Source of the DNA: Wolbachia endosymbiont of Drosophila innubila
GTDB lineage: Bacteria > Pseudomonadota > Alphaproteobacteria > Rickettsiales > Anaplasmataceae
Assembly: GCF_021378375.1 (NCBI RefSeq)
Contig: NZ_CP076228.1
Coordinates: 1,110,001 to 1,142,000, forward strand
Length of the DNA: 32,000 nucleotides
Direction: 5' to 3'
Made by a program: the position numbers and the translations under genes. The notes under the pieces are model-generated. The model had not been told where the DNA came from. It saw nothing but the letters and a program-made list of their open reading frames with translations, and ran no database searches. Positions 10,078 to 30,961 of the stretch are shown one piece after another (positions within the stretch are counted from its first letter, which is position 1; every line of letters begins with the position of its first letter).

Positions 10078-10150
10078 TGCCGTTACCAAGACTCGAACTT
10101 GGGACCTCGTCATTACCAATGACGTACTCTACCACCTGAGCTACAACGGC
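10078..10150 (-). tRNA. tRNA-Thr (anticodon GGU)
   Basis: The reverse complement GCCGTTGTAGCTCAGGTGGTAGAGTACGTCATTGGTAATGACGAGGTCCCAAGTTCGAGTCTTGGTAACGGCA folds as a cloverleaf. It has a 7-bp acceptor stem, anticodon stem CGTCA/TGACG, loop TTGGTAA and T-loop TTCGAGT. CCA is not encoded. Confidence 0.9.
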
Positions 10151-10397
10151 AAGTTTATATATTATGATAATGAATAACACAAAAAAGAATAAGGAAAAAG
10201 AAGAGGAGAAAAAAAGATTAGCGAAAGCTTTAAAGCAAAATATTTTGAAAAGAAAAAAGCAGCAACAGAGTAGACAGAGAACCCTTTCAAAACTCGTTTG
10301 TGGTGAGGAATTTTTAGGAGAAAGCACCGCAGAATACTCGAATGTATTTGAGAACGACAAAATTACCATCAGAAACTTAAGTTTTGAAGGAGGTATC

Positions 10398-11213
10398 ATG
10401 CCAGAACTACCGGAAGTGGAAGTAATCTCTAATTTTTTGCTTGATAAAATTAAAAACAAGCAAATCAGTAATGTTATAGTGAATAATTGGAATTTACGTG
10501 CCCCAATAACAAAAAATATTGATGATATGCTAAAGGGCAAAGTCATACGCAACATCAAGCGTAGAGGTAAGTATACCATCTGGAATACAGATGGTAGTGT
10601 GGCTGTAATCATACATCTTGGCATGAGCGGAAAGCTTATATATGCTGACCACGATCAAATGCGGAATAAGCATGATCACGTGGTATTTTTATTTTCTGAC
10701 AATACTTCAATAATTTTTAATGACCCAAGAAGATTTGGATTAGTTATCGTTTTAAATAAAGAACAAGAAACGGATTTTTTTAGCGATTTTGGAATAGAGC
10801 CCCTCACGGATGAATTCAGTGGAGACTATTTACAGGAGTTGCTGAAAAACAAAAAAGTGAATATCAAATCAGCGTTAATGGACAATAAATCAATAGTTGG
10901 CGTAGGCAACATATATGCTTCTGAGAGCTTGTTTAGAGCCCGTATATCACCACTCAGGTCAGCAAAAAACTTGACCTATAGAGAGTGCGAAAAACTTGCT
11001 GCTGAAATAAAAAATACTCTGAGTGATGCAATTGCTGCAGGTGGTTCAACACTGAAAGATTATGCACAGCCATCTGGATCTGCTGGATACTTTCAAAATA
11101 ACTTTTACGTATATGGTAAAGTTCAAAAACCTTGCAAGATTTGCAATAATATCATAACACTTATACGACAAAATGGCCGTAGCACTTATTTTTGCAACGC
11201 GTGCCAGAATTAA
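10398..11213 (+). CDS. mutM: formamidopyrimidine-DNA glycosylase
   Basis: The true start is the internal ATG giving MPELPEVE (catalytic Pro2/Glu3), preceded by gaaggagg. A C-terminal zinc finger CKICNNIITLIRQNGRSTYFCNACQ is present. The ORF-track start at 10164 adds a Lys-rich non-homologous extension. Confidence 0.9.
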   Translation: MPELPEVEVISNFLLDKIKNKQISNVIVNNWNLRAPITKNIDDMLKGKVIRNIKRRGKYTIWNTDGSVAVIIHLGMSGKLIYADHDQMRNKHDHVVFLFSDNTSIIFNDPRRFGLVIVLNKEQETDFFSDFGIEPLTDEFSGDYLQELLKNKKVNIKSALMDNKSIVGVGNIYASESLFRARISPLRSAKNLTYRECEKLAAEIKNTLSDAIAAGGSTLKDYAQPSGSAGYFQNNFYVYGKVQKPCKICNNIITLIRQNGRSTYFCNACQN

Positions 11214-11826: not shown

Positions 11827-11903
<77 letters not shown>

Positions 11904-11965
11904 TCGTTGCTTATTTAGTTATTATATATACAAATAATGAAAAAAGAAAAATAAAATTTCACCAC

Positions 11966-14148
11966 ATGCAAATATCGACACACTTATTAACTTTTCTTGA
12001 CATAATAGTTAGTTATATACGTAACAATCTGCGCAATGAACAATATAACTTGATACTGTGGTTTCCTGTTCTTCAGTGTGCAGGAATTTTAACATATTTT
12101 TCCCTAAGTTTTGAACCAAGCTGCATATCTATTTTTCTTTTGCTTTTACCCACACTAATTTTGATTGCAATATTATACAGAAAGTACGCAATATTATGCA
12201 TTGCTTTAATTGCAGTGCTCATAGGATTTACAGCCAGTAAATTAAGAACAGCTTTAGTTGATACTCAAATTCTTGATAAAGAGAGGTATGTAAAAAATAT
12301 CGTTGCCACAGTGAAGGATATTAACGACAGGGGCTCATATAAACAATTTCTGCTTTCTGTTGAAAAATCCCCTACTATCTCAAAATCCTCTCCTGTCATC
12401 CCAGCGCCCCCTTTTGTCATCCCAGTGCCCCCTTTTGTCATCCCAGTACTTGATACTGGGATCCAGAAAAAAAAGATATGGATTCCAGCGTCACGCGCTG
12501 GAATGACACCGGATAGAGCTCTAGATAACATCAGAATATCAGTTAGAACCAAAGTGGAAAAAGGCATTAAAACAGGCGATCAAGTAAAATTATCAGCAAA
12601 ACTCTTCCCTCTAAAGATTGCACCTTCGGAGTATGCATACGATTTTGCAAGAATAGCATATTACCAGAAAATAAGTGCAACAGGTTTTGCAACAAGCAAA
12701 ATAGCCCTACACAAAAAGGCTGAAGCAAGGCAATTTCTAGAGTATATAGAATCTTTCCGTCAATACATTTATGAAAACCTGCAGCAAAATATCAAAAAAC
12801 CACATGCGGATATAATCTCTGCATTACTGATCGGTAAAAAAGATGGCATAGATCAAAAAACTATGGACGCGATACGAGATTCAGGTATAGCACATTTGTT
12901 TGCCATATCTGGTTTGCATTTATCATTTGTTGCTGGTCTGTTTTTTGTAGTGTTTCGTAATTTATTCGCAATATCTGAAACTTTGACTCTTAAGTATAAC
13001 ACCAAGAAAATATCTGCATTCCTTACTATCTTGCCAACCACGTTTTATTTATTGATTATCGGTATGCAAATTTCTGCTCAGCGTGCCTACATTATGGTGA
13101 TTTAGTACTCGTTGCAATAATGATAGAGAGAAAGTATCGAGGGTTAATAGCAATTGCGTTTGCTGCTTCAGTGATACTCTCAGTAGAACCAGAAGCAATT
13201 TTAAAGCCTGGCTTTCAGATGTCATTTTTTGCTGTTTTGGCACTGGTTGCCAGTTATCAAATTAATGCTAATAAGTTGTTCAAAATAAAAATAATGAAAT
13301 ATTTTGTGTCGATAATGATCAGCTCAGTAATAGCAAGTTTAGCAACTGTTCCGTATACGATATATAATTTTAATTATTTTTCAATTAGTGGCATTATCAC
13401 AAATTTAGTTGCTATACCAATAGTTACATTAATTATTATTCCACTTGGAATAATCTATGTTTTGTTGATTCCTTTGGGTGTTGAATGGATTATAGCGCCA
13501 TTTATAGAGCGCCCAATTGACAGCATTTTGTATATAACAAATGCAATCGCTAGTCTTCAGTATTTGGTTATTCCCATTCGTACTTTTCCTGCCTCATCAA
13601 TTATTATAATAACATTTGGGTTATTGTGGCTGTGCTTGTGGGAAAGAAATTGGCGTTTCTTCGGAATTTTCTTTATTGTGCTGGGTATTTTCTCTAGTGC
13701 TATGTATAGAACTCCTGATATCTTGATAAATGCTGATAATGTTGCTGCAAAGGAGAGTGATAACTTACTATATTCTCTCACCAGAAAAAATAGGAACTTT
13801 GTTGTCAAAACATGGGCGAAGCAAAATGGGCAGAACCAAATTTTGAATCATAAAAAATACAATAACTCAGATAAAAGGCTAAAGTGTAACGATTATGGCT
13901 GCATATATAATAAAGGAAATAATAAATTAGTGCTGCTAGCTTATAAAAAAGAAGATATTTCAGAAAATTGTGATAAAGTTGATTTAACAATTCAATTAAG
14001 TGAATTCGACTATTCAGCTTGCAACGCTAAAATTATTAAACATGCTGATCTAGAAACGTATGGCACACATTCTGTTTGGTTAACAAATCGTTACGTAAAG
14101 ATTAATACAGTGCGCTCCAATAGGCCTTGGCACATGTTGAAAAATTAA
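11966..14148 (+). pseudogene. comEC: ComEC/Rec2-family competence channel protein, interrupted by a frameshift near 13085-13120 and carrying an in-frame repeat insertion
   Basis: The N-terminal fragment is 11966-13105 (MQISTHLL...; polytopic, with GIAHLFAISGLHLSFVAG, the ComEC core motif). The C-terminal fragment is 13120-14148, in another frame (PGFQMSFFAVLALV plus more TM helices). The track start at 11867 overlaps the tRNA-fMet and is spurious. Confidence 0.7.
12392..12510. repeat. palindromic repeat element embedded in frame in comEC
   Basis: Three gtcatcccag units at 21-bp spacing (12395, 12416, 12437) are followed by the hairpins cccagta-cttga-tactggg, atcca-N13-tggat and ttccagcg-N5-cgctggaa. 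It translates as VIPAPPFVIPVPPFVIPVLDTGIQKKKIWIPASRAGMT. Confidence 0.65.
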
Positions 14149-17301: not shown

Positions 17302-18093
17302 TTAAGATTTACCGCAACTACAATAAGTACTCTTATCATCACATTTTGGTGTTAAGTCAGGATAGAACGTGAGTATAGCATCATTCTTTCTTACAAACAC
17401 TGATTGATAATTGTCATCTTCCATTTCATATAGACACATTCCATCTTTTCCTAATTCCTTAAACGCCTTAGTTGCAGAAATTATCGGCATGAAGGTTATA
17501 TGTGTATCCATTTGGGCATTTAACTTTCACTTCCCCATCCTTACCCAAATATTTCATTCCAAATGTATAAACCGGCGGCTTAATATCTGATTCATTGCAC
17601 AGGATTCCAACTGCCCATTTATCCTCTTGAGCTTCAACATATCTACCTACAAAATGCATACCACCTAATTTATCGTTTGGCTCACCACAAAAAATATGTC
17701 CAAACCCTATAGTTTCTTTTTCACTTCCACTATTTGTAAACCAAATGTTAGCCAGTTCATCTTTAAGTAACTCCAAATCCGCATCTGGCGTAATCACTTA
17801 TATATTCCTTTCACTACTTCTTGATGCTGCGGACAACTAAGTAAAATTTTGAAATCTTCTTTATCTGGATGTGCTCCCCAATCTCCACAAACTTTCAACA
17901 CTCCTCTATCGAAGTCAGTTAATTCTGAAACGGTGGCTGGTTGTGAACTGAAAAATGGTTCAAAATTGACTTCAACATTTTCTTCTACATAGCCGGTGTG
18001 AAAATAATGATCCTTAATATAAAAAATAAATCCTATTATTGGTATTATTAAACACAAAATTAGTTTAACTGTCTTCGACATAATCACGTTCAC
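17302..18093 (-). pseudogene. membrane-anchored EndoU/XendoU-like ribonuclease-fold protein, split into three overlapping ORFs
   Basis: The ORFs are 17794-18093 (N-terminal signal anchor KLILCLIIPIIGFIFYI), 17468-17797 (GFGHIFCGEPNDKLGGMHF, i.e. H-x-F-x-G-E ... G-x-H as in the EndoU catalytic histidines) and 17302-17511 (ends ..AILTFYP). The junctions overlap by 4 nt and 44 nt. Confidence 0.4.
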
Positions 18094-20679: not shown

Positions 20680-21708
20680 ATGTTAAGTAGCCTCTGGAAA
20701 AAAGGAACAGATTTTCTTAGCAGTGAGTTTGCTATAATGGGTGGTGCTATGAGCTGGGTTTCAGAGAGAAACTTGGTCTCAGCAATCTCAAACGCTGGTG
20801 GTTTTGGTGTGATTGCATGTGGTGCAATGTTTCCAGACTTGCTAAAAAAAGAAATCATAGAGACGCAGCAATTAACTAACAAGCCATTTGGTGTAAATCT
20901 AATTACTATGCACCCAAAGTTGAGTGAGTTGATAGATGTGTGTATTGAAACGAAAGTGAGCCATATAGTGCTTGCCGGTGGACTGCCAACAAAGCCTAAT
21001 ATAGAAAAAATCAAGGGTGCAGGCATTAAAGTTATGTGCTTTGCACCAGCATTAAGCCTTGCGAAAAGGTTAGTAAAAATGGGAGTAGATGCATTAATAA
21101 TAGAAGGAATGGAAGCAGGTGGGCATATAGGTCCAGTTAGCACTTCTGTTCTTGCACAAGAGATATTGCCTCATTTTAAAAATGAACAAATACCAGTGTT
21201 TGTTGCAGGTGGAATAGGAAGAGGTGAAATGATAGTTAATTACCTGGAAATGGGAGCAAGTGGCTGTCAAATAGGTACATTATTTGTCTGCACTAATGAG
21301 TCAATTGCCCACAAAAATTTTAAGGAAGTGTTTATTAAATCGGCCGCACGTAATGCAATACCTTCTGTACAGATAAGTGCTGATTTTCCTGTAATTCCAG
21401 TAAGAGCTATAGCCAACAAAGCAAGCGATGACTTTATGAAGCGTCAAAAAGAAGTTATTGATGAATACCAAAAGGGACAGATCTCAAAAGAAGATGGGCA
21501 GCTTGAAATAGAAAAATTCTGGGCTGGAGCTTTAAGAAGAGCAGTAATTGATGGAGATGTTGAAACGGGATCTTTAATGGCTGGCCAAAGTGTTGGCATG
21601 GTTGATAAGGAAAAGCCTGTAAAAGAAGTAGTGGATATGTTAGTTCAACAAGCAAAGAATCATATTAATAGCAAATCTGTAGAAGTAGAAAGCCCAGAAA
21701 GCAAATAG
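20680..21708 (+). CDS. nitronate monooxygenase family flavoprotein (FabK-like enoyl-ACP reductase II / 2-nitropropane dioxygenase family)
   Basis: IMGGAMSWVSERNLVSAISNAGGFGVIA, FGVNLI, DALIIEGMEAGGHIG and FVAGGIGRG are typical of the FMN-binding TIM-barrel NMO/FabK family. Confidence 0.72.
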   Translation: MLSSLWKKGTDFLSSEFAIMGGAMSWVSERNLVSAISNAGGFGVIACGAMFPDLLKKEIIETQQLTNKPFGVNLITMHPKLSELIDVCIETKVSHIVLAGGLPTKPNIEKIKGAGIKVMCFAPALSLAKRLVKMGVDALIIEGMEAGGHIGPVSTSVLAQEILPHFKNEQIPVFVAGGIGRGEMIVNYLEMGASGCQIGTLFVCTNESIAHKNFKEVFIKSAARNAIPSVQISADFPVIPVRAIANKASDDFMKRQKEVIDEYQKGQISKEDGQLEIEKFWAGALRRAVIDGDVETGSLMAGQSVGMVDKEKPVKEVVDMLVQQAKNHINSKSVEVESPESK

Positions 21709-21830
21709 TTAAGCGACCTTCCAATAAGCAAGTTGCCGCAATTATTTATAATATGGCATAATTGCCCAGTTTTAATGTAAAATTAACGCTAAAGAGGTAT
21801 CTATACATTTTGTTATGTATGGAGGAGTCT

Positions 21831-23048
21831 ATGCTAAGTTCTAAAAAAGATATTAACCAACAATTGCACGACACTATATACAAAAAGGTAACAAAAGAAA
21901 ATCATAAATATGGAAGCCCACAAAAGGGAGATGGAACTATCAAAAAATGCATAGAGTTGTTCAAGGAAGGAGCTAGTCTTGAGGTATTAACTGAATTAGA
22001 AAAATCGCTGAGAGAACAATTAGAAAAATCACCAAAAAAACAAGAGGAATATCAAAAACATTATAAGTATTATATCGAAAACTTTCTTCCTGCATTGAAA
22101 GATGAAGTAATAAAATCAGAAGAACTAGCTGTACCTACAGTATTTAACAATGAAAGAGAACAATCACAAAGACCACAAACAATAAGAGGAAAAATAGTAA
22201 AAACAATTTTGGATATTACTAACAGGAGCAGCAGTGTAAGCTCAATACCAAATGCTGTTGAAGAAAATATTGAAGATCAAATGCAGCTAAAACATATTGA
22301 AGAGCAAAACAACACACAAGAAACACCCTTGAATGTAGCTGAGAAAAAAAGTGGTGATAATAAAATACTTAGTAATTCAGATGTTGCAGAGGAAGTGTTT
22401 GAAAAATATAGCAAGGTTGTGAAAGAAATAGAGGAGAAGAAAACTTCTAAACTCAGTAGTGGCAATGACTCAGATAGTGGAATAGACTCACCTAGAACGA
22501 GTAAAGAAAGTTTGAAATCACCAGTAAGTAGCAGAAGGAGCAGTTTAACTTTAGTAACAAGCACTTCATCTGAGGAAAGTTTAAACTCAACATTGAGCTC
22601 TGTTGAAGGAGATAATGGCTTGCAACCAGAGGGTGGAGAAAAAACTGAGTTATTAGAATCAAATTTGGAATCCCCAAAAGAAAACGAGACTCAAGTGCAG
22701 CCAGAGCAGACTGTAAAAAAAGAGCCAAAAATGCAAGAAAATGAAAACTCAGATGGTCAAGCAAATCCAGATCAAGTTAAGAAAGATATCCTACTTAAAA
22801 ACCAACCCAATAACAGAAATCTTCACGTTGCACTTGTAGCAGGTTGTGCTCTCTCCACAATAAGGTGCATTGTTGCAGGAGCAATGACATCAGGATTGAT
22901 AGGAGCAGGACTACTTGCTATGGCTGCAGTGTTTGCTATAGCAGCAGTAGCTGAATTGCATTCAAACTTCCTATCAAGTAAATTAACATCCATTAATGTG
23001 AGTCCTCTTGTTGATGATAAAGAGCTTACAGCATGTTCACGTCTGTAA
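21831..23048 (+). CDS. hypothetical Ser/Glu/Lys-rich protein with a C-terminal bilobed hydrophobic domain
   Basis: The ORF is open from 21762. The ATG at 21831 is preceded by ggagga, and ATG 21819 is also possible. It has a long low-complexity Ser-rich middle and a C-terminal hydrophobic region of about 46 aa, LHVALVAGCALSTIRCIVAGAMTSGLIGAGLLAMAAVFAIAAVAEL. No known domain was recognised. Confidence 0.6.
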   Translation: MLSSKKDINQQLHDTIYKKVTKENHKYGSPQKGDGTIKKCIELFKEGASLEVLTELEKSLREQLEKSPKKQEEYQKHYKYYIENFLPALKDEVIKSEELAVPTVFNNEREQSQRPQTIRGKIVKTILDITNRSSSVSSIPNAVEENIEDQMQLKHIEEQNNTQETPLNVAEKKSGDNKILSNSDVAEEVFEKYSKVVKEIEEKKTSKLSSGNDSDSGIDSPRTSKESLKSPVSSRRSSLTLVTSTSSEESLNSTLSSVEGDNGLQPEGGEKTELLESNLESPKENETQVQPEQTVKKEPKMQENENSDGQANPDQVKKDILLKNQPNNRNLHVALVAGCALSTIRCIVAGAMTSGLIGAGLLAMAAVFAIAAVAELHSNFLSSKLTSINVSPLVDDKELTACSRL

Positions 23049-23146: not shown

Positions 23147-23524
23147 TTGATGCGCATTCAATTGAATAAAGTTTTGGTTTTTATAGCCTTATTAAGTTTC
23201 ATTTTTGCATCATATTCTAGCGAAGCAAGTTCGGCGAGTGATGAATTAAAGGGTATACAAGAAACGGTAAAAAATTTTATTTCTTCATTTTCAGTTAAAG
23301 ATACTGTAGAAAATATGAATCCTTCAACAATCATAGGGTTGTGTATAGCTGCAGTGATACTTGCAGTAGTGTTCAGAGGTCTAATCTTTTTTATGATAAT
23401 GTTTGGTGTACTGGTCCTGATGTTCGGTAGTACAGAAAAGGCAACAGACTACTTAAAAGAAAAATTTAACTTTGCAAAAGATATAAAATTACAATCCGAT
23501 AGCGAAAAAAAAGATAAAAATTAA
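23147..23524 (+). CDS. small membrane protein, VirB2/TrbC pilin-like by topology
   Basis: 125 aa with an N-terminal signal-peptide-like segment (VLVFIALLSFIFASYSSEA). Two adjacent hydrophobic helices (IIGLCIAAVILAVVF-RG-LIFFMIMFGVLVLMFG) are followed by a charged tail. It lies 32 bp upstream of a virB4 paralogue on the same strand. Confidence 0.45.
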   Translation: MMRIQLNKVLVFIALLSFIFASYSSEASSASDELKGIQETVKNFISSFSVKDTVENMNPSTIIGLCIAAVILAVVFRGLIFFMIMFGVLVLMFGSTEKATDYLKEKFNFAKDIKLQSDSEKKDKN

Positions 23525-23556
23525 GATAGTATTTTTATCTTTTTTAATTATCTTTA

Positions 23557-25923
23557 TTGAATATGCATATGCAGTTAAAAGTACCAACAGTTAACTCTAA
23601 GCTTAAAAAAAAGAACAACTTAGCATTACTAGAAAGCATTGATTTAGATTTTGTTCCTTATGCTTGTCATTACGATGAAGAAACCATACTAACAAAACAG
23701 GGAGAATTGTTAAAAATAATCAAGTTAGAAGATTATTCTTCTGTTGATAACTACAGCGACCTCAGAACTGAAATTAGAAAAAGCATATCAAAAAATATTA
23801 ATAGCCTGTGTTTTACCGCTTGGATTCATACCGTTAGAAAGCGCAATAAACTGAGCTTGAAATGGAATAAAACTGAAGACTTCTCTGACAACCTACATTC
23901 AACGTGGTTTAATAAACTAACTGATAGTAAATTACAGTATATAAATGAACTATACATTGTAATATTGTTTAGCGATTTTGGCAAGCATACTAATAATTCG
24001 TTTTTTTTCAATAGAATAAAGAATAAGCATAAGTTGTCTTTACAAGGAAGCCATCAGGAGTTGCAAAAGATAACTGACGTAATTCAAAATGATTTAGGAC
24101 CTTTTGGAGCTAAAAAACTGAGTCTAAGGTTTAGTGAAGGTAAAATATATTCTGAAATGATAGAATTTCTCCACTATATTGTTACATTAACGCACAAAGA
24201 TTATCCAATACATGAAAGGGACCTGTCGCAATATATTAGAAATTTTAAAATAGCTTTTGGTTTCAATACGTTTCAAACAATATTTGAAAATCAACAGAAA
24301 TTTGGCTCTATTTTCAGCATAAAAGAATACCGGGAAATCTCTTTAGGTAATATAGATAGATGCTTGCAGCTTGAATCTGAATTTATCATTACAGAAATAA
24401 TGATATTTACTAGTAATAACAAAGCAATAAAAGAATTTAAAAAACAAATCAACATGCTGCAAATTAGTGAGGATAATACCTTACTTAAAAGCTCAGGAAT
24501 TGAAGAAATAATAGAGCTTGAAAAGACCTCTAGTATAGACTTCTGCCAACAGAAAATTATTTTTACAATATTTGCAGATGATAGGAATAAGTTAGCTGAA
24601 AGTATTAGTGATTTATCTTCTATAATGTCATTAGTTGGCTTCATGATGTTTAGAACTGATTTACATATGGAAAGTCATTTTTGGGCACAACTTCCAGGCA
24701 ATTTTGCTTTTATTACGCAACCGAAAAATATCTTAACAAAATACGCTTGCAGCTTTGCTATGCTGCACGATTTTACGTCAGGTACATTAAAAGGAAGAAG
24801 GTGGAAAGAAGCGGTAATGATTTTTTTTTCAAAAAAAGGAAATCCTTACTTCTTTAATTTTCATGGAAAAAGAAATAATGGCCATACTACGATACTCGGA
24901 GCTCCAAATTCAGGCAGAACTTCACTCATTAATTTTCTATTATCAGAATCAAGAAAGTTTAACCCAAGAATTGTCATATTGGATAACACTGGAAAATCAA
25001 TAATTTTTACTAAAGCAGTGAGTGGTAAATATTACATAATCGATCCAAAATATAAGGACAAAAGCCTAAAATTTAATCCACTAAACATTGAAGATAGTGC
25101 TTCCAATCGCAATATGTTGGTTGAACTGATCAGAAGAATGGTAGCCGATACGAGCTTGGTGGACGTAGAAGAAAAGATAAGAAAAATTGTGGATTCTATA
25201 TTTGCTATACCCAAGGAATCACGTTCTATTTCACAAATTTCTGAGGTGCTCTTGCTCCTTGGGGGTAAGATAAGTAGATGGTGTGACGATGGTGATTTTG
25301 CTTACTTATTTCAAGATGGTGATGAATCAGATATTGACTGGGAAACAAAAATTATATCTCTCAACACCGCAAACCTTACAAAACAAAAGGAATGTATGTC
25401 CGTGATACTTTACTATTTTTTATATTCTTTTGAGGCAAAATGTGATGGCTCGCCTGCAATACTTGTTTTGGATGAAGCATGGGAGATAAGTAATATTTTT
25501 CCTACAGAGAAAGAGTTTGATAACTGGATGCAAAGAATGACGGAACTAAATGTTGTAGTAATCCTAAGTACTGAGAATTTAAATCTCGCATTTGCTAGCA
25601 AATTTACTCAATATTTAGATAAACATGTTGATACAAGAATCTTGATGCCGAACGTCAATGCAAATAGATTATACATGAAGGCATTTTCTCTATCGAAAGA
25701 GGAGCTGAATATAATTCTGCAGACGCCAACACAGGAAGGTTTATTTTTGATAAAACAGTACAAAGGATTAGTAACCTTAAATCTGGATTTGAAGGATATG
25801 CAAGAAATACATGTACTTTCAGCTAACAAAGAGACTATAAAGTATATGTATGAGGCAATAAAAGAAAAAGGAGAAGAAGTTAATGAGTGGTTACCGGTAT
25901 TTTATGAGAAGTGTAAGGCTTAA
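23557..25923 (+). CDS. virB4: type IV secretion system ATPase VirB4 paralogue, divergent second copy
   Basis: 788 aa with VirB4/CagE/TrbE-like organisation. Walker A-like GHTTILGAPNSGRTSLINFLL, Walker B AILVLDEAWEI, and a C-terminal region NVVVILSTENL. Possible starts are TTG 23557, ATG 23563 or ATG 23569. Confidence 0.85.
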   Translation: MNMHMQLKVPTVNSKLKKKNNLALLESIDLDFVPYACHYDEETILTKQGELLKIIKLEDYSSVDNYSDLRTEIRKSISKNINSLCFTAWIHTVRKRNKLSLKWNKTEDFSDNLHSTWFNKLTDSKLQYINELYIVILFSDFGKHTNNSFFFNRIKNKHKLSLQGSHQELQKITDVIQNDLGPFGAKKLSLRFSEGKIYSEMIEFLHYIVTLTHKDYPIHERDLSQYIRNFKIAFGFNTFQTIFENQQKFGSIFSIKEYREISLGNIDRCLQLESEFIITEIMIFTSNNKAIKEFKKQINMLQISEDNTLLKSSGIEEIIELEKTSSIDFCQQKIIFTIFADDRNKLAESISDLSSIMSLVGFMMFRTDLHMESHFWAQLPGNFAFITQPKNILTKYACSFAMLHDFTSGTLKGRRWKEAVMIFFSKKGNPYFFNFHGKRNNGHTTILGAPNSGRTSLINFLLSESRKFNPRIVILDNTGKSIIFTKAVSGKYYIIDPKYKDKSLKFNPLNIEDSASNRNMLVELIRRMVADTSLVDVEEKIRKIVDSIFAIPKESRSISQISEVLLLLGGKISRWCDDGDFAYLFQDGDESDIDWETKIISLNTANLTKQKECMSVILYYFLYSFEAKCDGSPAILVLDEAWEISNIFPTEKEFDNWMQRMTELNVVVILSTENLNLAFASKFTQYLDKHVDTRILMPNVNANRLYMKAFSLSKEELNIILQTPTQEGLFLIKQYKGLVTLNLDLKDMQEIHVLSANKETIKYMYEAIKEKGEEVNEWLPVFYEKCKA

Positions 25924-28765
25924 TTTCTTATTGATATTTTTTTTGATACTTGGTCTTTCGTATCAAGGATATGCTGATTGTCCAACATTTGTAGAAAGTA
26001 ATACTTGGTGGGAAGCAATAGTTGGTGGAGATTGGGTAAAGGAAATTAAGGTGCAAGCAATAAAAGATCAAGGAGTTGATGGTTACTTTAATCCCAAAAT
26101 TAGAGTATGTGCTTATGATGGACAAAGTTATTGTTATGACTTACAAAGTGGGGAATCCTGCCGCCAGATATATGGAACGCAAGGTACAGGAGCTGGAGTT
26201 TCTGCTGCAGCTTTTATCGACTGGGAAGGAGATAAAACAAAAGCTGGAGGAGAAATTGCTCGGGGTCTTAAATGGGAATGGGCAGACGGTGTTACTGATG
26301 AGGAAAAAAGAAGATTCGCTAACTCTCCTAAAATATGTGCTTGCAGTCAAAAAGGGGCTTGTATGTCAGGAATTTCTTCATGGGGTTCTAGAGTATTTTC
26401 GGGTGAGAATATTTTCCGTCTTGGGGAGATGGAAAAAGTCTGTGATACCTGCTACCAAACGGCAGTAAAATGTGCTCCTGTTCCACTTGCACCTGGCCCC
26501 CCTCCATTTTGTGAACAACTTGCAATGTCGCTTCCACAAGTTAGAATTGTTCCTATAACAGATAAAGACAATGATTACTTTAATCCTAAGGTTAAGGTAA
26601 TCATTGGTGATCTGAAAGGAAGAGACGGAGAGATTGGAGAAAAATTAGATTTCCCTAAAGGGTATGGAGAAAATAAAGCTGAGTGGCGCTCTATTTTAGA
26701 CAAAAATGGCATCACGTACTACTTCAAAACTTATAGAGAAAAAGATAAGCTCTGCGCTGAATACCTTGGAACTCAAAGTATAGATGAAAACAATCCACAG
26801 TTCATCCGCTGTTTTCCTGCACTACCTGCTCCAGAACCTGAGATAGTGGAGATAGTAAATGCAAATACATTGAAAGTAGAAATGAAGATGAGTGAGAGCG
26901 CTTGTGCTAAAGCACATGGAACCTATAGTAATGGTTCCTGTACTTTTAATGTTAATACTGACCTCAACCATCCTATAAACATTGGCCCCCTATCTTTAAA
27001 AGTAGTAAAACCAGCAATAGTAGCAAAAACAACTGATAGTAATATTGATAATATTATAGAAGGTATATTAGAAAGTAATCCGCAACAATTTAAAGTTCTG
27101 AAAGAATATGGCTATGTTCCTGATGTGCAAATTAAATGTTCTAAAGGCGGAAGTTTTTATAGTTTTAATGATTTTGAGAAAAAGTTAAAAGACAAATCTA
27201 TTCAATGTGAATTTAATAACTCTGGGCAGCCGGAAATAGAAGTAAAGTATAAAGGAAATTCTAACAGTAAAATGCTTTGTCTTTCTGGATGGCAGCCAGA
27301 ACCAGAGGAGTTTGTTCTTAAAAGAGAAAATAAAATAATACCACTAAAATTAATGGGAACAAGATATACTAAATACAATGCTGTTTACTCCAAGGAATCA
27401 AATCAGTTCTATTATCTTCCAAGCAAGGAAATAGTTTACCCTTTGAAAGAAACTCAAGAGAGGTTGGATAAAATAATATTTAATAAGCAAGAGTATGTTT
27501 TCTTCCCTGATGAAAATGAGCAGAAGAAGGAAGAATGCAGTTATTGTGTGAAGAAAGATAGCAAAATAGACGAAAAATTAAAATCTGGTGAAGGACTGAA
27601 AGTAGTATACAAATTGACGGATGTAGAGCATAAAGAAGGATGTGAGCAAGGTGATGATGGTTGCATCTGCTTTGATGGAAAGTGTAGCCGTTCAAAACAA
27701 TATTTGAATAAAAATGAAGATGATAAGCCATTCTACTTAAGGTATGAGGAAGTGGATTGTAAAGATAAGGATGGTAAAGTATTAAGAGATGAAAAAAATG
27801 AAGTACGAAAGTGTACACAATTAAAAGATCAACTGATTAAAGCAAACAGAACAGAGGTTTTTTACGCTGATAAATTGTGTAGGTTCGATTTAGAAGGTCT
27901 CAAAAAGAAATTAAAAGAAAAATTAAAAGAGATAATCAAGGAACATCTGAAAAATAAGAAACCAGATCTTGAAAAAAATAATGAAAAATCCTATGATCAT
28001 AAAAATAAAGATGTTTATACAGATGACTTATCAATAAAATTTGATCGTATTAAAATAGAAGCGTGGGGAAGTGGTGAAGCAGGTCATATACAAGGTAGTG
28101 GCTGTGACAATCAAAAATGCCATTCTACTGAAAGCAGAGTAGGGATGCCAGGAGATTATATTAAAGCTAAACTGAAAATCGATCCTAATTATCCTATAAT
28201 TAAGGTGCAAGTCACAGAGGGAGGGGGTAACCAGGAAAGTAACTTCTCAGATAAGGACGGGGGACCTATTTTCATAGAAATGTGCAATTCGCAGAAGCAA
28301 CATTGCCAGCAACTGATTACTGTTGCAGGTGGAGGTGAGTATAGAATATACGGTGGTAAGGGTTATGAGGAAACAGTAATTCATAAGCAAGATTTAAAGC
28401 TAGAGGAGAAAATTGTAAAGGCAGATAAACTGAAGTCTACACAAGACAATCAAATAGCATATATAGAAAATGGTGAAATCAAGTATGAAACAGTAGAGTG
28501 TGGAAGTGGTTTGAGAAGCAGTAGATCTGGTGCAGGTGGCTGCATTAATAAAAGCAAAGGAATTTATGGTAAAGGCTCTCCAGGGTATGTGAAGATTAGA
28601 CCTATTATAAAGGAATTTGACGAAGAAGAAATAAATGCTGCTATTAAAAAAGTAATAGAGGATCTATACGATCTTGAAACTATGACTGATTTTTGGGTAG
28701 GGGATCTTAACGTGAATATAAGTGGGATAATTAAAGAGGAAGTCAAAAAAGAATTATCAAGGTAA
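25883..28765 (+). CDS. large secreted cysteine-rich protein of unknown function with a C-terminal glycine-rich domain
   Basis: 960-aa uninterrupted ORF overlapping the virB4-paralogue 3' end by 41 nt (20 nt if it starts at ATG 25904). It has a signal peptide LNFLLIFFLILGLSYQGYA|DC, many Cys residues, and Pro-rich linkers (PLAPGPPPF, ALPAPEPE). The motif D-x-YFNPK-[IV]-[RK]-V occurs twice. The C-terminus reads IEAWGSGEAGH...VTEGGGNQ...ITVAGGGE...GAGGC...GKGSPGYVKIRP. Confidence 0.7.
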   Translation: MSGYRYFMRSVRLNFLLIFFLILGLSYQGYADCPTFVESNTWWEAIVGGDWVKEIKVQAIKDQGVDGYFNPKIRVCAYDGQSYCYDLQSGESCRQIYGTQGTGAGVSAAAFIDWEGDKTKAGGEIARGLKWEWADGVTDEEKRRFANSPKICACSQKGACMSGISSWGSRVFSGENIFRLGEMEKVCDTCYQTAVKCAPVPLAPGPPPFCEQLAMSLPQVRIVPITDKDNDYFNPKVKVIIGDLKGRDGEIGEKLDFPKGYGENKAEWRSILDKNGITYYFKTYREKDKLCAEYLGTQSIDENNPQFIRCFPALPAPEPEIVEIVNANTLKVEMKMSESACAKAHGTYSNGSCTFNVNTDLNHPINIGPLSLKVVKPAIVAKTTDSNIDNIIEGILESNPQQFKVLKEYGYVPDVQIKCSKGGSFYSFNDFEKKLKDKSIQCEFNNSGQPEIEVKYKGNSNSKMLCLSGWQPEPEEFVLKRENKIIPLKLMGTRYTKYNAVYSKESNQFYYLPSKEIVYPLKETQERLDKIIFNKQEYVFFPDENEQKKEECSYCVKKDSKIDEKLKSGEGLKVVYKLTDVEHKEGCEQGDDGCICFDGKCSRSKQYLNKNEDDKPFYLRYEEVDCKDKDGKVLRDEKNEVRKCTQLKDQLIKANRTEVFYADKLCRFDLEGLKKKLKEKLKEIIKEHLKNKKPDLEKNNEKSYDHKNKDVYTDDLSIKFDRIKIEAWGSGEAGHIQGSGCDNQKCHSTESRVGMPGDYIKAKLKIDPNYPIIKVQVTEGGGNQESNFSDKDGGPIFIEMCNSQKQHCQQLITVAGGGEYRIYGGKGYEETVIHKQDLKLEEKIVKADKLKSTQDNQIAYIENGEIKYETVECGSGLRSSRSGAGGCINKSKGIYGKGSPGYVKIRPIIKEFDEEEINAAIKKVIEDLYDLETMTDFWVGDLNVNISGIIKEEVKKELSR

Positions 28766-28889: not shown

Positions 28890-30800
28890 GTGCGCCAAGA
28901 AGTGCGTAAGGAACAGTTGGTGAAAATCCAACACGGGTAAAGCTTAGCCGGCAACCTGGAACAAACCATTATGCTGCGTAAGGTAACGAGCGTAGTAAAG
29001 CTAATGGAATGGACAACATAGGGTGCAACGAAAGTGAAGGTATTGAGTCCCGTAATTCACGCGTCATGGGGGCTGACACTTTACATTTGGTGGAAGGCAA
29101 CATGGGTAATAACGCTAAGGCAAGATATTACTCACCTCATCGGGATCGAAGGCCGCGTCATGTGTTGAGATGGACCTTACGTGAACTTGGGAGATCCTTT
29201 GTATTCCTGTAAGGGTACTCTGGAACAAGTCAATAAAGGCGAGGACTGGAGGAAGATGCAAAGGAAGTCGGACTAATTGATAGTACTCGGAGTGTGGGAA
29301 AGCCACATACAAGGGGAAGCGGTTAGCAATATAGTGACTGGTATAGGGATTGCTATACCAATACAACAGAGATTAGAGGAGTATGCAAGGAAAACTAAAC
29401 CAGATAGCAGTAAGGGCTAAGCAAGATAAGCGAGTAAAATTTACATCATTAGTTCATTTGATTAATGAAGAGAATCTTGCAGAGTGTTATAAGGAACTAA
29501 AACGCAACAAGGCTTGTAGTATAGATCGTGTGACAGTGGAAGCTTATGGAGAAAATCTAGAAGAGAAACTTAAAACACTAGTGGATAGTATGAAGAGAAA
29601 ACAATATCAACCGCTACCAGTGAAAAGGGTATACATACCCAAAGCCGGGAGCAAAGAGAAGCGCGGTCTCGGAATACCATCAACGGAAGATAAGTTGGTA
29701 CAGGTAATGCTAAAGAAGATATTAGAAAATATTTATGAAGCAAACTTTATGGACAGCTCGTATGGATTTCGACCAGGAAGAAATTGTCATCAGGCGATAA
29801 ACGCTCTAGATAAAGCAGTTATGCACAAACCAATTAACTATATTGTAGAAGTGGATATCAAGAAGTTCTTTGATAATGTTCAACATAAATGGCTAATGAA
29901 TTGTCTAAGGAACGAATAGCTGACCCAAATTTATTGTGGTTAATAAAACGATTTCTAAAGGCAGGAATAGTCGAAGTTGGATGTTATAAAGCAACCGATC
30001 AAGGCACACCACAAGGTGGTATAGTAAGCCCTGTATTAGCTAATATATACTTACACTATGTGCTGGACTTATGGTTTGAAAAGAAATTTAAGCCAAAAGC
30101 CAGAGGATATTTACAGCTAATAAGGTTTTGCGACGATTTTGTAGTTGGCTGCGAGAGGAAGAAGACGCAAAAGAATTTCTAGAATTACTGAAACAAAGAC
30201 TAAGTAAATTTGGGTTGGAAATAGCTGAAAATAAAACAAAAATAGTAAAGTTTGGTAAGAAAGAATGGTATCAAGCAGAAAGAGAGAAACGTAGGACGGC
30301 TAGCTTCAACTTTCTAGGATTTACACATTATTGTGGAAAAGTCGTAATGGTAAACTTATGATGAAGCAGAAAACTTCAAAAATAAGCCTAGCCAGAAAGA
30401 TTAAAAGAAATCAAAGAATGGTTGAAGATGGTACGAAGTCGTATCTGTTTCAAAGATTGGTGGCAGAAACTTAAAAGCCAAACTAACAGGACACTATAGC
30501 TACTTCGGAGTTAGCGGAAATTATCGGTGTTTGATTCAATTCTATCGACCGGTAACAAAGTTAGCATTTAAGTGGATAAACCGACGTAGTCAAAAGAAAA
30601 GTATGGATTGGGAACAATTTATACACTATTTAAAAGTAAATCCATTACCAAAACCAAAGGTATATGTTTCTTTATACACAGGAGCACTAGTGTGAACGCT
30701 GTATTGTGGAGCCGTGTGCGGGAAATCCGCAAGCACGGTTCTTTTGGGGAGACTATGGTTATGAGACCAAATCGCTGGTTTCAAGGTCATGAGTCTCTAC
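28890..30800 (+). mobile_element. bacterial group II intron (ribozyme plus degraded intron-encoded protein)
   Basis: The 5' end is GTGCG at 28890. About 490 nt of higher-GC structured sequence precede the domain IV ORF. Domain V at 30709-30741 (GAGCCGTGTGCGGGAAATCCGCAAGCACGGTTC) closely matches the canonical DV with a GAAA tetraloop. A DVI-like stem has a candidate bulged A at 30792, and the element ends ..CTAC near 30800. The 3' boundary is good to only a few nt. Confidence 0.8.
29383..30695 (+). pseudogene. group II intron reverse transcriptase/maturase, multiply frameshifted
   Basis: RT blocks are present: VKRVYIPKAGSKEKRGLGIPSTEDKLVQ, YGFRPGRNCHQAI, GTPQGGIVSPVLANIYLH and RFCDDFVV (YADD-box position). 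The maturase/X region reads FLGFTHY...FKWINRRSQKKSMDWEQF. It is split over at least 4 frames, with shifts near 29895-29920, 30150-30180, 30340-30365 and 30400-30600. No En/HNH domain was seen. Confidence 0.8.
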
Positions 30801-30961
30801 CAGACTAAGATAAATCGAAGCATTTTTGTGGAAATAAAGCGAAATATGGAAGACAAAAGATAAATGCATTCTGAAAGGCTACACAGCATGTTCGTCCCGC
30901 TAATTAATAATATCTTTATTATTGTATGAGATAGGTAATTTAGCATTTATGAATTTGTAAT

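Follow-up and report, generated by a model that had tools for sequence, protein, structure and literature searches.

A conserved Wolbachia gene trio places a divergent second VirB4 next to an overlapping gene for a predicted secreted, cysteine-rich EtpE-family protein

The window (the whole 32-kb stretch of DNA analysed) carries three tightly packed, co-directional genes on the plus strand between 23147 and 28765 (Table 1), and their maximal open reading frames are exactly those of an earlier sequence-only reading: 23147-23524 (125 aa, TTG start), 23557-25923 (788 aa, TTG start) and 25883-28765 (960 aa, ATG start). The spacing given in that reading, a 32-bp gap between the small gene and virB4 followed by a 41-nt overlap between virB4 and the large gene, holds for the maximal frames but not for the conserved and annotated starts. 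The public proteins for the trio begin at the ATG codons listed in Table 1. ATG 25904 is conserved in the Wolbachia supergroups, in Candidatus Mesenet and in another Anaplasmataceae MAG, always 20 nt before the virB4 stop codon, and ATG 25883 is present only in some supergroup A strains. Therefore, from the conserved and annotated starts, the true gap is most likely 44 nt and the true overlap 20 nt; the large gene is translationally overlapped with virB4, as had been claimed. Many homologues and purifying selection indicate that all three genes are real, with dN/dS values of 0.15-0.34 for the small gene, 0.07-0.13 for virB4-II (strong purifying selection) and 0.26-0.43 for the large gene. Upstream, the FabK-like gene that had been described as flanking the trio is present (FabK/NMO-like, 20680-21708), but a gene for a 428-aa hypothetical protein (21762-23048) intervenes. 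Downstream, the proposed group II intron was recognized by Rfam matches at 28923-29155 and 30707-30805, with a frameshifted reverse transcriptase in between. Neither virB3, virB6 or virB8-11 nor any further type IV secretion system (T4SS) gene was found within the 32-kb window, in agreement with the isolation of the locus noted earlier.

Table 1. Features of the three-gene locus (positions in the window).
Feature	Position	Strand	Basis or remark
Small gene	23150..23524	+	124 aa from ATG 23150; maximal ORF from TTG 23147
Small protein, predicted Sec signal peptide MRIQLNKVLVFIALLSFIFASYSSEA	23150..23227	+	Sequence and alignment A1
Small protein, two hydrophobic helices with VirB2-like hairpin topology	23321..23428	+	Invariant columns in A1
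rvhB4-II / virB4-2, divergent second VirB4 paralogue	23569..25923	+	784 aa from ATG 23569; maximal ORF from TTG 23557
Degenerate Walker A GAPNSGRTS, catalytic Lys to Arg	24898..24924	+	Alignment to TrwK GQSSSGKT
Walker B ILVLDEAW, D-E pair kept	25459..25482	+	TrwK alignment and cross-lineage alignment
LSTENL at the position of TrwK FATQEP, conserved Gln to Glu	25564..25581	+	TrwK alignment and cross-lineage alignment
Dual-coding junction of 20 nt, ATGAGAAGTGTAAGGCTTAA	25904..25923	+	Sequence and cross-lineage comparison
Large secreted Cys-rich EtpE-family protein (predicted)	25904..28765	+	953 aa from conserved ATG 25904; 960 aa from ATG 25883
Large protein, predicted Sec signal peptide MRSVRLNFLLIFFLILGLSYQGYA, then DC	25904..25975	+	Read from sequence
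Best-conserved N-terminal core motifs GYFNPKIRVC, KICAC..C, PLAPGPPPFCEQ	26081..26518	+	(Nearly) invariant columns in A2, A3 and A6
Predicted helix rich in Lys/Glu, a coiled-coil-like linker preceding the C-terminal domain	27890..27991	+	Helix 670-699 in AF2 model
C-terminal glycine-rich domain, Gly_rich_2-type fold class	28046..28597	+	Pfam, AF2, Foldseek, BFVD
Helical tail of ~55 aa, seen in Wolbachia sequences	28598..28765	+	Alignments A2 and A3; model helices 914-926 and 946-959

The middle gene is identified by profile comparison as rvhB4-II (virB4-2). Its product, an exact match to wInn UID81202.1, aligns with TrwK end to end and matches PF03135 (1.2e-30) and TIGR00929 (3.3e-134, but below the TIGR00929 cut-off), which bears out its earlier description as a divergent second VirB4; the counterpart in wBm is virB4-2, wBm0750 (PMC3518464). 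Judging from the alignments, the ATPase site of RvhB4-II is crippled by the Walker A Lys-to-Arg and the Gln-to-Glu replacements, yet the protein is strongly conserved. The NTP clefts of VirB4b/RvhB4-II have been described as degenerate (PMC2653234, PMC4676284). All Wolbachia share the Walker A replacement with Mesenet and GLO_MAG_00122, the degenerate Gln motif is likewise conserved across them, and both motifs have decayed further in two deeper lineages. Synteny and motif decay, rather than phylogeny, suggest that the VirB4s of the deeper lineages are orthologous to RvhB4-II. In one lineage, L018, only the VirB4 N-terminal domain is left (aligning to residues 29-386), yet its gene is still preceded by a TrbC gene and still overlaps the large gene by 10 nt. 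As cited in PMC2653234, an active-site mutant of Agrobacterium tumefaciens VirB4 still stabilized VirB3 and VirB8 and supported pilus formation.

The large protein had been described as secreted and cysteine-rich, and the analysis agrees: a Sec-type signal peptide is predicted, the family as a whole conserves a hydrophobic N-terminal leader, and 23 of the 33 cysteines are invariant. An exhaustive HMM search revealed about 30 distant full-length relatives, proteins of Ehrlichia chaffeensis and Anaplasma among them, that have both the N-terminal motifs and the glycine-rich domain at the C terminus; one N-terminal core motif also served as a search pattern. The family HMM matched the product of the 1963-aa EtpE gene (over part of the EtpE sequence only) and its two tandem paralogues at 6e-44, 1.5e-43 and 5.6e-42, and hhalign aligned the Wolbachia protein with the Ehrlichia/Anaplasma paralogues at 99.6% (E 3.6e-24, 605 columns). 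By these comparisons, the large protein shares homology with the ~700-775 aa that are conserved at the N terminus of EtpE and its paralogues. EtpE is the surface-exposed entry-triggering invasin of E. chaffeensis, and EtpE-N is its predicted membrane-proximal anchor (PMC3789761). The sequence-only reading had speculated that the partner is a surface or tip component or a dedicated substrate; the surface part of this speculation gains indirect support, because the large protein is homologous to the N-terminal module of EtpE. Nor is the large protein new to the field: the family includes EtpE, and the wBm orthologue WBM0749 was listed earlier as a likely surface protein and effector candidate (PMC1069646, PMC6160203). 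The WBM0749 protein has been detected in B. malayi and its gene is highly transcribed (PMC6160203, PMC7787461). No prior report of an EtpE link or of conserved synteny for WBM0749 or this family was found in the literature.

The N-terminal ~700 aa of the large protein gave no detectable similarity to T4SS components, and AF2 modeled the full-length protein poorly (pLDDT 56.6). The glycine-rich domain, which carries the motifs IEAWGSGEAGH, GMPGDYIKA, TEGGGN, VAGGGEY, GAGGC and GKGSPGYVKI, was modeled with a pLDDT of 85.6 and a pTM of 0.83. PF21722 (Gly_rich_2) matched 15 of 22 family members (best 1.5e-8); the large protein of the window itself reached no Pfam match. Foldseek retrieved the ALK glycine-rich domain, the cyanophage Pam3 fiber and the Bxb1 tail tip at a probability of 1.0 with modest TM-scores of 0.28-0.53, and BFVD gave 61 matches at E<=1e-3 to phage minor tail/tail-fibre and giant-virus fibre proteins. 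These matches place the C-terminal ~190 aa in the fold class of phage tail-fibre/minor-tail proteins. In alignment A3, the Lys/Glu-rich linker is missing from the family members outside Wolbachia, and non-Wolbachia members stop at ...TCExW directly after the glycine-rich domain.

Conservation of the three-gene adjacency had been proposed as a check, and it was observed in every Wolbachia examined: the order small gene, VirB4 and large gene occurs in 7/7 Wolbachia loci, including those of the filarial supergroups C and D. Homologues of the large protein also lie downstream of the second virB4 in other Anaplasmataceae and deeper Rickettsiales; Mesenet and GLO122 keep VirB4 and the large gene with a 20-nt overlap, and a related trio headed by a true TrbC/VirB2 gene is found in eight of the ten non-Wolbachia Rickettsiales loci. 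The E. chaffeensis locus tags follow the order virB2-4 (ECH1042), VirB4 (ECH_1041) and EtpE (ECH1038) (PMC9765013, PMC12053472). Across lineages, virB4 and the large gene either overlap by 4-50 nt or are separated by <=18 nt, with the exception of Anaplasma (~550 nt), and the overlap is identical in length (20 nt) in wBm, wDimm, Mesenet and GLO_MAG_00122; in the window, the large gene starts within the two codons for Y and E in WLPVFYEKCKA, the conserved tail of VirB4. These comparisons show the gene order and tight junction to be conserved across Anaplasmataceae and deeper Rickettsiales, and the EtpE-type family is spread across Rickettsiales, almost always directly downstream of a VirB4-II paralogue. 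In genome L009, one paralogue of the large protein stands alone, with no VirB4 nearby, and Anaplasma has extra tandem paralogues that do not adjoin VirB4. The L009 paralogue and the ~550-nt gap in Anaplasma imply that the family can exist without tight coupling. No family member was detected in the genus Rickettsia, although RvhB4-II is universal there; Rickettsia VirB4b has been reported as solitary (PMC2653234).

We lean slightly towards a reading in which the trio is a module for a Sec-exported, disulfide-rich envelope or surface protein that is made and assembled with a non-catalytic VirB4 scaffold and a small pilin-like partner. The three genes would be co-transcribed, and the large gene would be translationally coupled to virB4-II. 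The EtpE-family product would cross the inner membrane by the Sec pathway, fold oxidatively in the periplasm and take its place in the envelope or on the surface, in association with the rvh type IV secretion machinery. Instead of working as a motor, RvhB4-II might provide a scaffold for assembly, chiefly by way of its N-terminal domain, and the small protein might be a pilin-like membrane partner. A link to T4SS regulation speaks for this reading: the EcxR-type regulator wBmxR2 binds a probe that covers the 3'-terminal 80% of the small gene and the virB4-2 start. Coupling of the synthesis and assembly of the large protein to the VirB4 scaffold is what we infer; the conserved gene order and translational coupling speak for co-expression, not co-assembly. 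Such a module could stand in for a missing VirB5-type or TraN-type T4SS adhesin branch. In Ehrlichia the common core bears an additional C-terminal receptor-binding extension (EtpE-C), and in Wolbachia a short helical tail only.

The pilin-like partner is the part to which a competing view applies. The small protein had been called VirB2-like, a label for which a profile match had been proposed as the check and which now refers to position and topology only, as neither TrbC/VirB2 nor VirB3 profiles matched it in Pfam and PDB profile searches. It resembles TrbC/VirB2 pilins in its size, signal peptide, two hydrophobic helices, basic loop residue and place immediately upstream of virB4-II, and syntenic VirB2s in its FG[AS] helix end; its helices, with an invariant F-R-G loop (23372-23380) between them, are co-linear with those of VirB2 (alignment A8). 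It differs in having a ~12-aa insertion before helix 1 and a longer charged C-terminal tail and in lacking two cysteines, that of the ICN motif of VirB2 and the C-terminal one of most syntenic VirB2s, and its sequence similarity to the pilins is not significant (hhalign against syntenic VirB2s, 0.4% and 4.9%). The gene is conserved in all Wolbachia supergroups sampled, and tag order suggests that WBM0751 is its wBm orthologue. It is quite conceivable, if somewhat disfavoured, that Wolbachia recruited an unrelated membrane protein into the slot of a moved or lost ancestral virB2, the true unit being VirB4-II and the large protein. Besides the lack of TrbC/VirB2 similarity by all three methods, this view draws on the finding of small-protein homologues in Wolbachia only, on Mesenet and GLO122, the closest sampled Wolbachia relatives, which have no small gene upstream of virB4-II, and on the recognized virB2 paralogues carried by Wolbachia (PMC7397232, PMC12407924), presumably encoded elsewhere in the genome. 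The features shared with syntenic VirB2s argue against it, as do the TrbC gene at the same position in eight other lineages and the 4.9%-level hhalign match, which is weak but co-linear; the name TrbC/VirB2 family, given to one family member by UniProt automatic annotation, is a lead only.

For the large protein, the coupling to VirB4-II proposed in the favoured module competes with an unlikely alternative, an autonomous EtpE-like surface adhesin or anchor that uses Sec and general outer-membrane pathways. The adjacency to virB4-II would then reflect shared EcxR-type regulation or frozen gene order, and RvhB4-II would act elsewhere in the rvh machine. EcxR and wBmxR2 bind upstream of virB4-2 as at other rvh loci; the stand-alone paralogue in L009 and the Anaplasma arrangement also fit, and EtpE, with an EtpE-N predicted to be an outer-membrane anchor, was studied as an invasin without a reported T4SS requirement (PMC3789761). 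Nevertheless, the adjacency has been kept over very deep divergence (~20-25% identity in the large protein) despite extensive genome rearrangement, even in strongly reduced filarial Wolbachia. Outside Anaplasma, virB4-II and the large gene overlap or are <=18 nt apart in every lineage, with the dual-coding 20-nt overlap as one case, and the VirB4 cut down to its N-terminal domain in L018 still overlaps the large gene. Such conservation exceeds what co-regulation usually preserves. A two-step route for a disulfide-bonded, Sec-dependent T4SS substrate exists in Bordetella, where pertussis toxin is handled by Ptl. That the large protein is likewise an rvh T4SS substrate, either as a translocated effector or by Sec export, periplasmic folding and T4SS release across the outer membrane, is improbable: the tight linkage to a T4SS gene favours it, as do the detection of WBM0749 in worm tissue and the choice of WBM0749 and its neighbours as T4SS effector candidates on the grounds that they are co-regulated with the T4SS (PMC6160203). 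However, classical VirD4-dependent translocation out of the cytoplasm fits poorly with a predicted cleavable signal peptide and 23 invariant cysteines, EtpE remains on the bacterial surface and is not released (PMC3789761), the part of PMC6160203 consulted reports no yeast phenotype for WBM0749, and the glycine-rich domain belongs to a class typical of structural fibres rather than of enzymes or effectors.

Compared with known systems, the Wolbachia large protein is a relative of the protein that Ehrlichia uses to enter human cells. It shares with EtpE (ECH1038) a signal peptide, a Cys-rich N-terminal region with PxAPxPPPFC and the glycine-rich domain, and the shared core matches EtpE-N (residues 29-708), a region conserved from one Ehrlichia species to another (PMC3789761). 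The gene neighbourhood is also alike, since EtpE lies, by its locus tags (PMC9765013, PMC12053472), downstream of virB2 paralogues and virB4-2, an arrangement also seen at the Anaplasma locus. However, neither the ~950-aa strain-variable central region of EtpE nor the ~300-aa DNase X-binding EtpE-C has a counterpart in the Wolbachia protein, and the invasin activity of EtpE is therefore not transferable to it. Unlike EtpE, it has its own coiled-coil linker and ~55-aa helical tail, and its gene overlaps virB4-II by 20 nt and is single-copy, in contrast to the three tandem paralogues of Ehrlichia and Anaplasma. Its C-terminal ~190 aa belong to the same fold class as PF21722 Gly_rich_2, the ALK/LTK GRD and phage/giant-virus fibre domains, but, unlike the viral domains, contain conserved cysteines and end a bacterial envelope protein. 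As a Sec-exported extracytoplasmic protein within a T4SS gene set, it recalls the VirB5/TrwJ minor pilins, F-plasmid TraN, which is cysteine-rich as well, and Bartonella Trw, components that mediate surface contact; the analogy is functional only, as profile and structure comparisons detected neither sequence nor fold similarity to them. In Trw, a T4SS is devoted not to secretion but to variable adhesive pili, whose VirB2 and VirB5 components have been duplicated (PMC4676284). Finally, the middle protein corresponds to RvhB4-II/VirB4b as described, a full-length VirB4 with altered NTP-binding residues encoded apart from rvhB3, rvhB6 and rvhB8-11 (PMC2653234, PMC4676284). RvhB4-II figures in the literature as a solitary locus of unknown function, whereas in the present analysis it forms the centre of a conserved, translationally coupled module.

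The small gene, virB4-II (also called rvhB4-II, VirB4b or virB4-2) and the large gene all lie on the forward strand at the positions assigned to them in the sequence-only reading. The proteins recorded for wInn begin at ATG 23150 (124 aa), ATG 23569 (784 aa), and ATG 25904 (953 aa). ATG 25904 is the conserved start of the large gene and is located exactly 20 nt ahead of the virB4 stop in wBm, wDimm, three further Wolbachia, Candidatus Mesenet longicola (Mesenet) and GLO_MAG_00122, another metagenome-assembled genome (MAG) of the Anaplasmataceae, whereas the upstream ATG 25883 is restricted to some supergroup A strains. With this conservation, the junction between virB4-II and the large gene is most likely a 20-nt dual-coding overlap, ATGAGAAGTGTAAGGCTTAA, in which the codons for Tyr and Glu in the conserved VirB4 tail WLPVFYEKCKA supply the start codon of the large gene. 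The 41-nt overlap claimed earlier was ruled out as the real junction, because the upstream ATG on which it depends is not conserved. A consensus scan, which called promoters and terminators only as often as expected by chance, detected no terminator-like site on the forward strand inside the trio. The remainder of the 32-kb window contains housekeeping genes and lacks any further type IV secretion system (T4SS) gene. The group II intron proposed as the downstream flank is indeed present; the FabK-like gene is not the direct upstream neighbor, a position occupied by a gene for a 428-aa hypothetical protein located between FabK and the trio. This acidic Ser/Glu/Lys-rich protein has a C-terminal Gly/Ala-rich hydrophobic segment and no family match. 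Its wBm counterpart (411 aa) is WBM0752 by inferred tag order, a published effector candidate, and no gene is called at this position in the reduced wDimm genome.

Features of the trio and of the surrounding window (window coordinates)
Feature	Position	Strand	Product
Region between citrate synthase and the next gene	5917-8087		
ComEC, first ORF	11867-13105	+	412 aa
ComEC, second ORF	13120-14148	+	342 aa
EndoU ORF with overlapping ORF	17468-18093	-	109 aa and 99 aa
Acidic Ser/Glu/Lys-rich protein	21762-23048	+	428 aa
Small gene, longest ORF	23147-23524	+	125 aa
virB4-II, longest ORF	23557-25923	+	788 aa
Large gene, longest ORF	25883-28765	+	960 aa
Group II intron	28923-30805	+	
Intron domains D1-D4	28923-29155	+	
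Reverse-transcriptase ORF, part 1	29383-29919		
Reverse-transcriptase ORF, part 2	29889-30182		
Reverse-transcriptase ORF, part 3	30128-30361		
Intron domains D5-D6	30707-30805	+	

Several other features of the window were recorded. Both domain groups of the group II intron reach Rfam gathering scores. The reverse-transcriptase ORF of the intron is spread over three frames, which makes a defective intron-encoded protein probable. ComEC (Pfam Competence) is present as two consecutive ORFs that divide the Competence domain between them (profile positions 1-85 and 93-268); the gene may be either split or a frameshifted pseudogene. The 109-aa ORF contains a bacterial EndoU nuclease domain (2e-10) and overlaps a 99-aa ORF without a match; this pair may be what is left of a polymorphic toxin system, or a small module of one. 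The region of approximately 2.2 kb downstream of citrate synthase contains no ORF of at least 90 aa, except for one 90-aa antisense ORF, and no Rfam match, and may be non-coding or the remains of a decayed gene.

Component-wise HMMs run on every fetched locus revealed that the order of the trio extends far beyond wInn. The arrangement of small gene, VirB4 and large gene is present in all seven Wolbachia loci, and VirB4 is followed by the large gene in Mesenet and GLO_MAG_00122. Eight further non-Wolbachia loci carry TrbC (one to three copies), VirB4 and the large gene in this order; they come from “Anaplasmataceae bacterium” OZ242261, Rickettsiaceae bacterium H1, Rickettsiales OZ253531, three MAG/Logan contigs, a 1.08-Mb genome, and an Anaplasma MAG. 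The VirB4/large-gene junctions show a 4-50 nt overlap or a gap of at most 18 nt, with the exception of Anaplasma (about 550 nt). The sole family member without an adjoining VirB4 is the second paralogue in OZ242261. The adjacency predicted for related genomes is thus borne out, and the order of a VirB2 slot, VirB4-II and an EtpE-family gene with tight junctions is deeply conserved. In two deep-lineage loci, L018 (4649-5266) and L019 (2795-3337), a DPBB_1 (RlpA-like) gene is located on the opposite (minus) strand just upstream of the TrbC-VirB4 module; its product might act with the module in cell-wall remodelling, or the position could be a coincidence.

The middle gene encodes a full-length VirB4, in line with the earlier assignment to VirB4: the CagE_TrbE_VirB domain (PF03135) is matched at 1.2e-30, and the protein is co-linear over residues 30-788 with R388 TrwK (E 1.3e-53). 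TIGR00929 matches residues 31-785 at 3.3e-134, with a score below its curated NCBIfam cut-off. The TrwK alignment revealed that Walker A (GxxxxGK[ST]) is not intact; the motif reads GAPNSGRTS, with the catalytic Lys replaced by Arg, and the conserved Gln of the NTP cleft (ATQE in TrwK) is replaced by Glu (STE), while the D-E pair of Walker B is retained. Arg in place of the Walker A Lys is fixed throughout the Wolbachia examined and also in Mesenet and GLO_MAG_00122. The syntenic VirB4s of deeper lineages, which would be orthologous to RvhB4-II on the basis of synteny, are variable: the Lys position may hold Ser, the P-loop and Walker B may both be wholly lost, and two of the proteins have kept GK intact. 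The extreme form is encoded at L018 5925-7010, in a complete 1.47-Mb Rickettsiales-like genome, where VirB4 is a 361-aa protein that aligns to residues 29-386 and consists of the N-terminal domain only; it lacks the ATPase domain, yet the upstream TrbC and a 10-nt overlap with the large gene are kept. Despite the defective site, dN/dS of virB4-II is 0.07-0.13; this constraint and the intact ORF in reduced filarial genomes rule out a decaying pseudogene. RvhB4-II/VirB4b paralogues have been described as proteins that “lack conserved ATPase active sites” and whose locus is “well separated” from other rvh genes, their function being given as unknown (PMC2653234, PMC4676284). The window VirB4 shares both the degenerate NTP site and the separate locus, which identifies it as RvhB4-II, and its wBm orthologue is the published virB4-2, wBm0750 (PMC3518464). 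In RefSeq records, VirB4-II is often named “type VI secretion protein”, a mis-annotation previously pointed out by Lindsey 2020 (PMC7397232).

Homologues of the small gene were recovered only from Wolbachia, in each supergroup sampled, including the filarial ones, and the gene evolves with dN/dS of 0.15-0.34. On inspection of the alignment, the protein comprises, in order, a signal peptide, a hydrophilic stretch of approximately 30 aa, two hydrophobic helices linked by an invariant F-R-G loop with its basic residue, and a charged tail of approximately 30 aa. This is a VirB2-type topology at a virB4-adjacent position, and to that extent the label “VirB2-like” stands. The profile evidence does not accompany it: Pfam TrbC (PF04956) gave no match to the window protein at E<=1, Pfam and NCBIfam scans returned nothing, only two of the 28 family members matched TrbC in a per-member Pfam scan (E about 1), and a PDB profile search with the family alignment gave chance-level matches and no pilin. 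In hhalign comparisons with VirB2s from the syntenic loci, the probability was 0.4% against five sequences and 4.9% (E 0.008, co-linear over 52 columns) against 12, neither of which is significant. In 8 of the 10 non-Wolbachia loci, true TrbC/VirB2 genes are located directly upstream of this VirB4, and those re-scanned gave Pfam E-values of 1e-15 to 2e-20; in Mesenet and GLO_MAG_00122 the small gene is absent from that position. Since no sequence test gave a significant link to VirB2, the similarity lies in topology and position, and the gene is absent from these two genomes, a protein derived from VirB2 and an unrelated replacement are nearly equally likely. VirB3 was ruled out as an identity, because the protein has a signal peptide and no VirB3 match and the slot is held by TrbC in relatives.

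The large protein has approximately 220 close homologues, all from Wolbachia or “Rickettsiales” MAGs, and the window protein gave no match in Pfam and NCBIfam scans. The alignment and an AlphaFold2 (AF2) model delineate a signal peptide, 23 invariant cysteines, a Lys/Glu-rich helix, a C-terminal block of approximately 190 aa (motifs IEAWGSGEAGH, GMPGDYIKA, TEGGGN, VAGGGEY, GAGGC, and GKGSPGYVKI) and, in the Wolbachia sequences, a helical tail of approximately 55 aa. The predicted Sec-type leader and the invariant cysteines indicate that the protein is exported, in keeping with its earlier description as secreted and Cys-rich. The gene is constrained (dN/dS 0.26-0.43), with non-synonymous change 3-7 times faster than in VirB4; purifying selection thus acts on all three genes of the trio. 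An exhaustive HMM search of 1.84 billion representatives yielded 61 matches, among them approximately 30 distant full-length proteins (680-1100+ aa) covering both the N-terminal core and the C-terminal block. The distant members have in common a leader peptide, GFFxPxIxV, ICA..C, PxAPxPPPFC, conserved cysteines, and a terminal domain with “CDFxTIEAWGGGxSG ... PGxGGC ... TCExW”. Pfam Gly_rich_2 (PF21722) is matched by 15 of 22 family members (best 1.5e-8), the window protein alone giving no match. In approximately one third of the non-Wolbachia members (P0185, P0187, P0193, P0195, P0202, P0205, P0206, and P0213; columns ~240-300 of the family alignment), a Gly/Ala-rich hydrophobic insertion resembling a membrane segment directly follows ICAC..C; Wolbachia proteins lack it. 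A 1657-aa “nudix hydrolase domain-containing protein” of the spider Trichonephila clavata (P0089), in which VirB4 domains are fused to a large protein with 64% identity, is most likely Wolbachia DNA, from contamination or lateral transfer, annotated as a single eukaryotic gene because virB4-II and the large gene overlap.

The full-length AF2 model of the 960-aa protein was poor (pLDDT 56.6, pTM 0.34) and gave no Foldseek match in PDB at E<=0.001; therefore, the C-terminal domain was modelled separately, with a confident result (pLDDT 85.6, pTM 0.83). Its PDB fold matches are the ALK glycine-rich/TNF-like domain, a cyanophage fiber, and Bxb1 tail-tip proteins (prob 0.96-1.0, E 1e-3 to 3e-2, TM 0.28-0.42). 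In BFVD, 61 matches at E<=1e-3 (TMq 0.4-0.53) comprise mycobacteriophage minor tail proteins, tail-fibre proteins, and glycine-rich or collagen-like fibre proteins of giant viruses. As modelled, the C-terminus belongs to the glycine-rich domain class (PF21722 type). For the N-terminal ~700 aa, the poor full-length model and a PDB profile search, in which the family alignment gave chance-level matches only, provided no structural or sequence relative outside the family. Six family members searched against PHROGs matched only families of unknown function (E about 0.003-0.007).

The family includes proteins of E. chaffeensis and Anaplasma. In the exhaustive HMM search described above, an E. chaffeensis protein (P0210) was recovered at E 7.8e-9. 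E. chaffeensis Arkansas carries three tandem genes, the first encoding a 1963-aa product and the third a 750-aa family member. By its length, the first is EtpE (ECH1038), reported to be 1963 aa, and the RefSeq accessions of EtpE and the 750-aa protein are two steps apart (PMC3789761, PMC9765013). The family HMM matches EtpE at 6e-44 (the part contained in the E. chaffeensis locus, which ends at ~residue 775), the 1231-aa paralogue at 1.5e-43, and the 750-aa paralogue at 5.6e-42; by inferred tag order, the two paralogues downstream of EtpE would be ECH_1037 and ECH_1036. In Anaplasma, three tandem paralogues follow virB4-2. An hhalign comparison of the Wolbachia alignment with that of the Ehrlichia/Anaplasma paralogues gave 99.6% (E 3.6e-24) over 605 columns. 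Judged from these profile matches, the Wolbachia large protein is the equivalent of the conserved EtpE-N module (residues 29-708), which is conserved among Ehrlichia species (PMC3789761). The adjacency of virB4-2 and etpE in Ehrlichia rests on the Anaplasma locus and on published locus tags, which place virB2-4 (ECH1042), a VirB4 (ECH_1041), and EtpE (ECH1038) in one cluster (PMC9765013, PMC12053472). A full-text search retrieved no paper tying EtpE to Wolbachia homologues, virB4 synteny or a glycine-rich domain, which, for an incomplete library, is absence of evidence only.

The wBm orthologue of the large protein, WBM0749, is expressed according to the literature. It was listed among likely surface proteins by Foster et al. 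2005 (PMC1069646), its transcription is high (PMC7787461), and it was detected in worm proteomes in Carpinone et al. 2018 (PMC6160203). Li and Carlow 2012 reported that a “virB4-2 promoter” probe is bound by wBmxR2 (PMC3518464). This EMSA probe maps to 10081-10429 of the wBm locus: it begins within the small gene, of which it holds the 3′ 80%, crosses the 30-bp spacer and runs 21 nt into virB4-2. As the probe covers the small gene, that gene was not recognised at the time, and the wBmxR2 binding site may therefore lie inside coding sequence.

In the favoured reading, the products of the three genes would function together. RvhB4-II would be a non-catalytic scaffold, a role towards which the natural N-terminal-domain-only variant in L018 argues, and the large protein, linked to the rvh machinery, would serve in the envelope or at the surface in place of a VirB5- or TraN-type adhesin. 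The fuller proposal is that the rvh T4SS has an unrecognised subunit, structural or adhesive, in the EtpE-family proteins, and that these form, with RvhB4-II as a non-catalytic N-terminal platform and VirB2-type paralogues, a surface-display or pilus-tip branch replacing VirB5; we regard it as speculative and rather unlikely as a whole. No similarity of the large protein to VirB5 or TraN was found in Pfam, NCBIfam or PDB, the full-length model being too poor for a firm fold-level negative. Alternatively, the large protein may be an autonomous surface protein whose linkage to virB4-II is regulatory only. Within the family, surface exposure has been demonstrated for EtpE only; EtpE-N is the predicted outer-membrane anchor of EtpE, antibody reaches it poorly on live bacteria, and it does not bind host cells (PMC3789761). 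The large protein may instead be a T4SS substrate: WBM0748, 0749, 0751, and 0752, which flank virB4-2, were named candidate T4SS effectors by co-regulation in Carpinone et al. 2018 (PMC6160203). The family-wide Sec-type leader and 23 invariant cysteines do not fit a classical VirD4-dependent effector, which is cytoplasmic, devoid of a Sec signal and recognised by features of its C-terminus. As a further alternative, the small protein may be unrelated to VirB2.

If the display-branch proposal is true, it would give a function to the Rvh-II paralogues, provide a candidate identity for the additional periplasmic densities (“wing” and “baseplate”) and for the pilus without VirB5 in wMel cryo-ET, and imply that the T4SS of Ehrlichia presents EtpE to the host. 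Wolbachia, Ehrlichia, Anaplasma, and Rickettsia, all members of the Rickettsiales, carry an unusual T4SS with duplicated parts, and since about 2009 it has been asked what the second set (Rvh-II), which is enzymatically defective, does. The rvh system has no VirB5 tip adhesin, yet a 2025 cryo-ET preprint showed Wolbachia pili; rvh pili and outer-membrane complexes are described in PMC12407924. The present analysis indicates that rvhB4-II is not solitary and is coupled across deep distances, putatively by translational coupling, to a secreted Cys-rich family that includes the core of EtpE. This linkage poses specific questions, namely whether VirB4-2 controls EtpE display and whether the Wolbachia orthologue is located on the pilus or the outer-membrane complex. 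Wolbachia biology gains a conserved, expressed candidate surface protein, and EtpE vaccine work gains an evolutionary context for EtpE-N. Even if the linkage is merely regulatory, three genes annotated as “hypothetical” or mislabelled are usefully re-annotated.

Compared with known systems, the trio is a variant of RvhB4-II, EtpE and VirB2 paralogues, joined by a proposed mechanistic link, and not a new kind of system. The main difference from EtpE lies at the C-terminus. EtpE runs ~1200 aa past the glycine-rich domain, whereas the Wolbachia protein stops ~55 aa past it and has no EtpE-C. The DNase X-binding EtpE-C, which carries the invasin activity and is not conserved even among Ehrlichia species (PMC3789761), is a lineage-specific addition.
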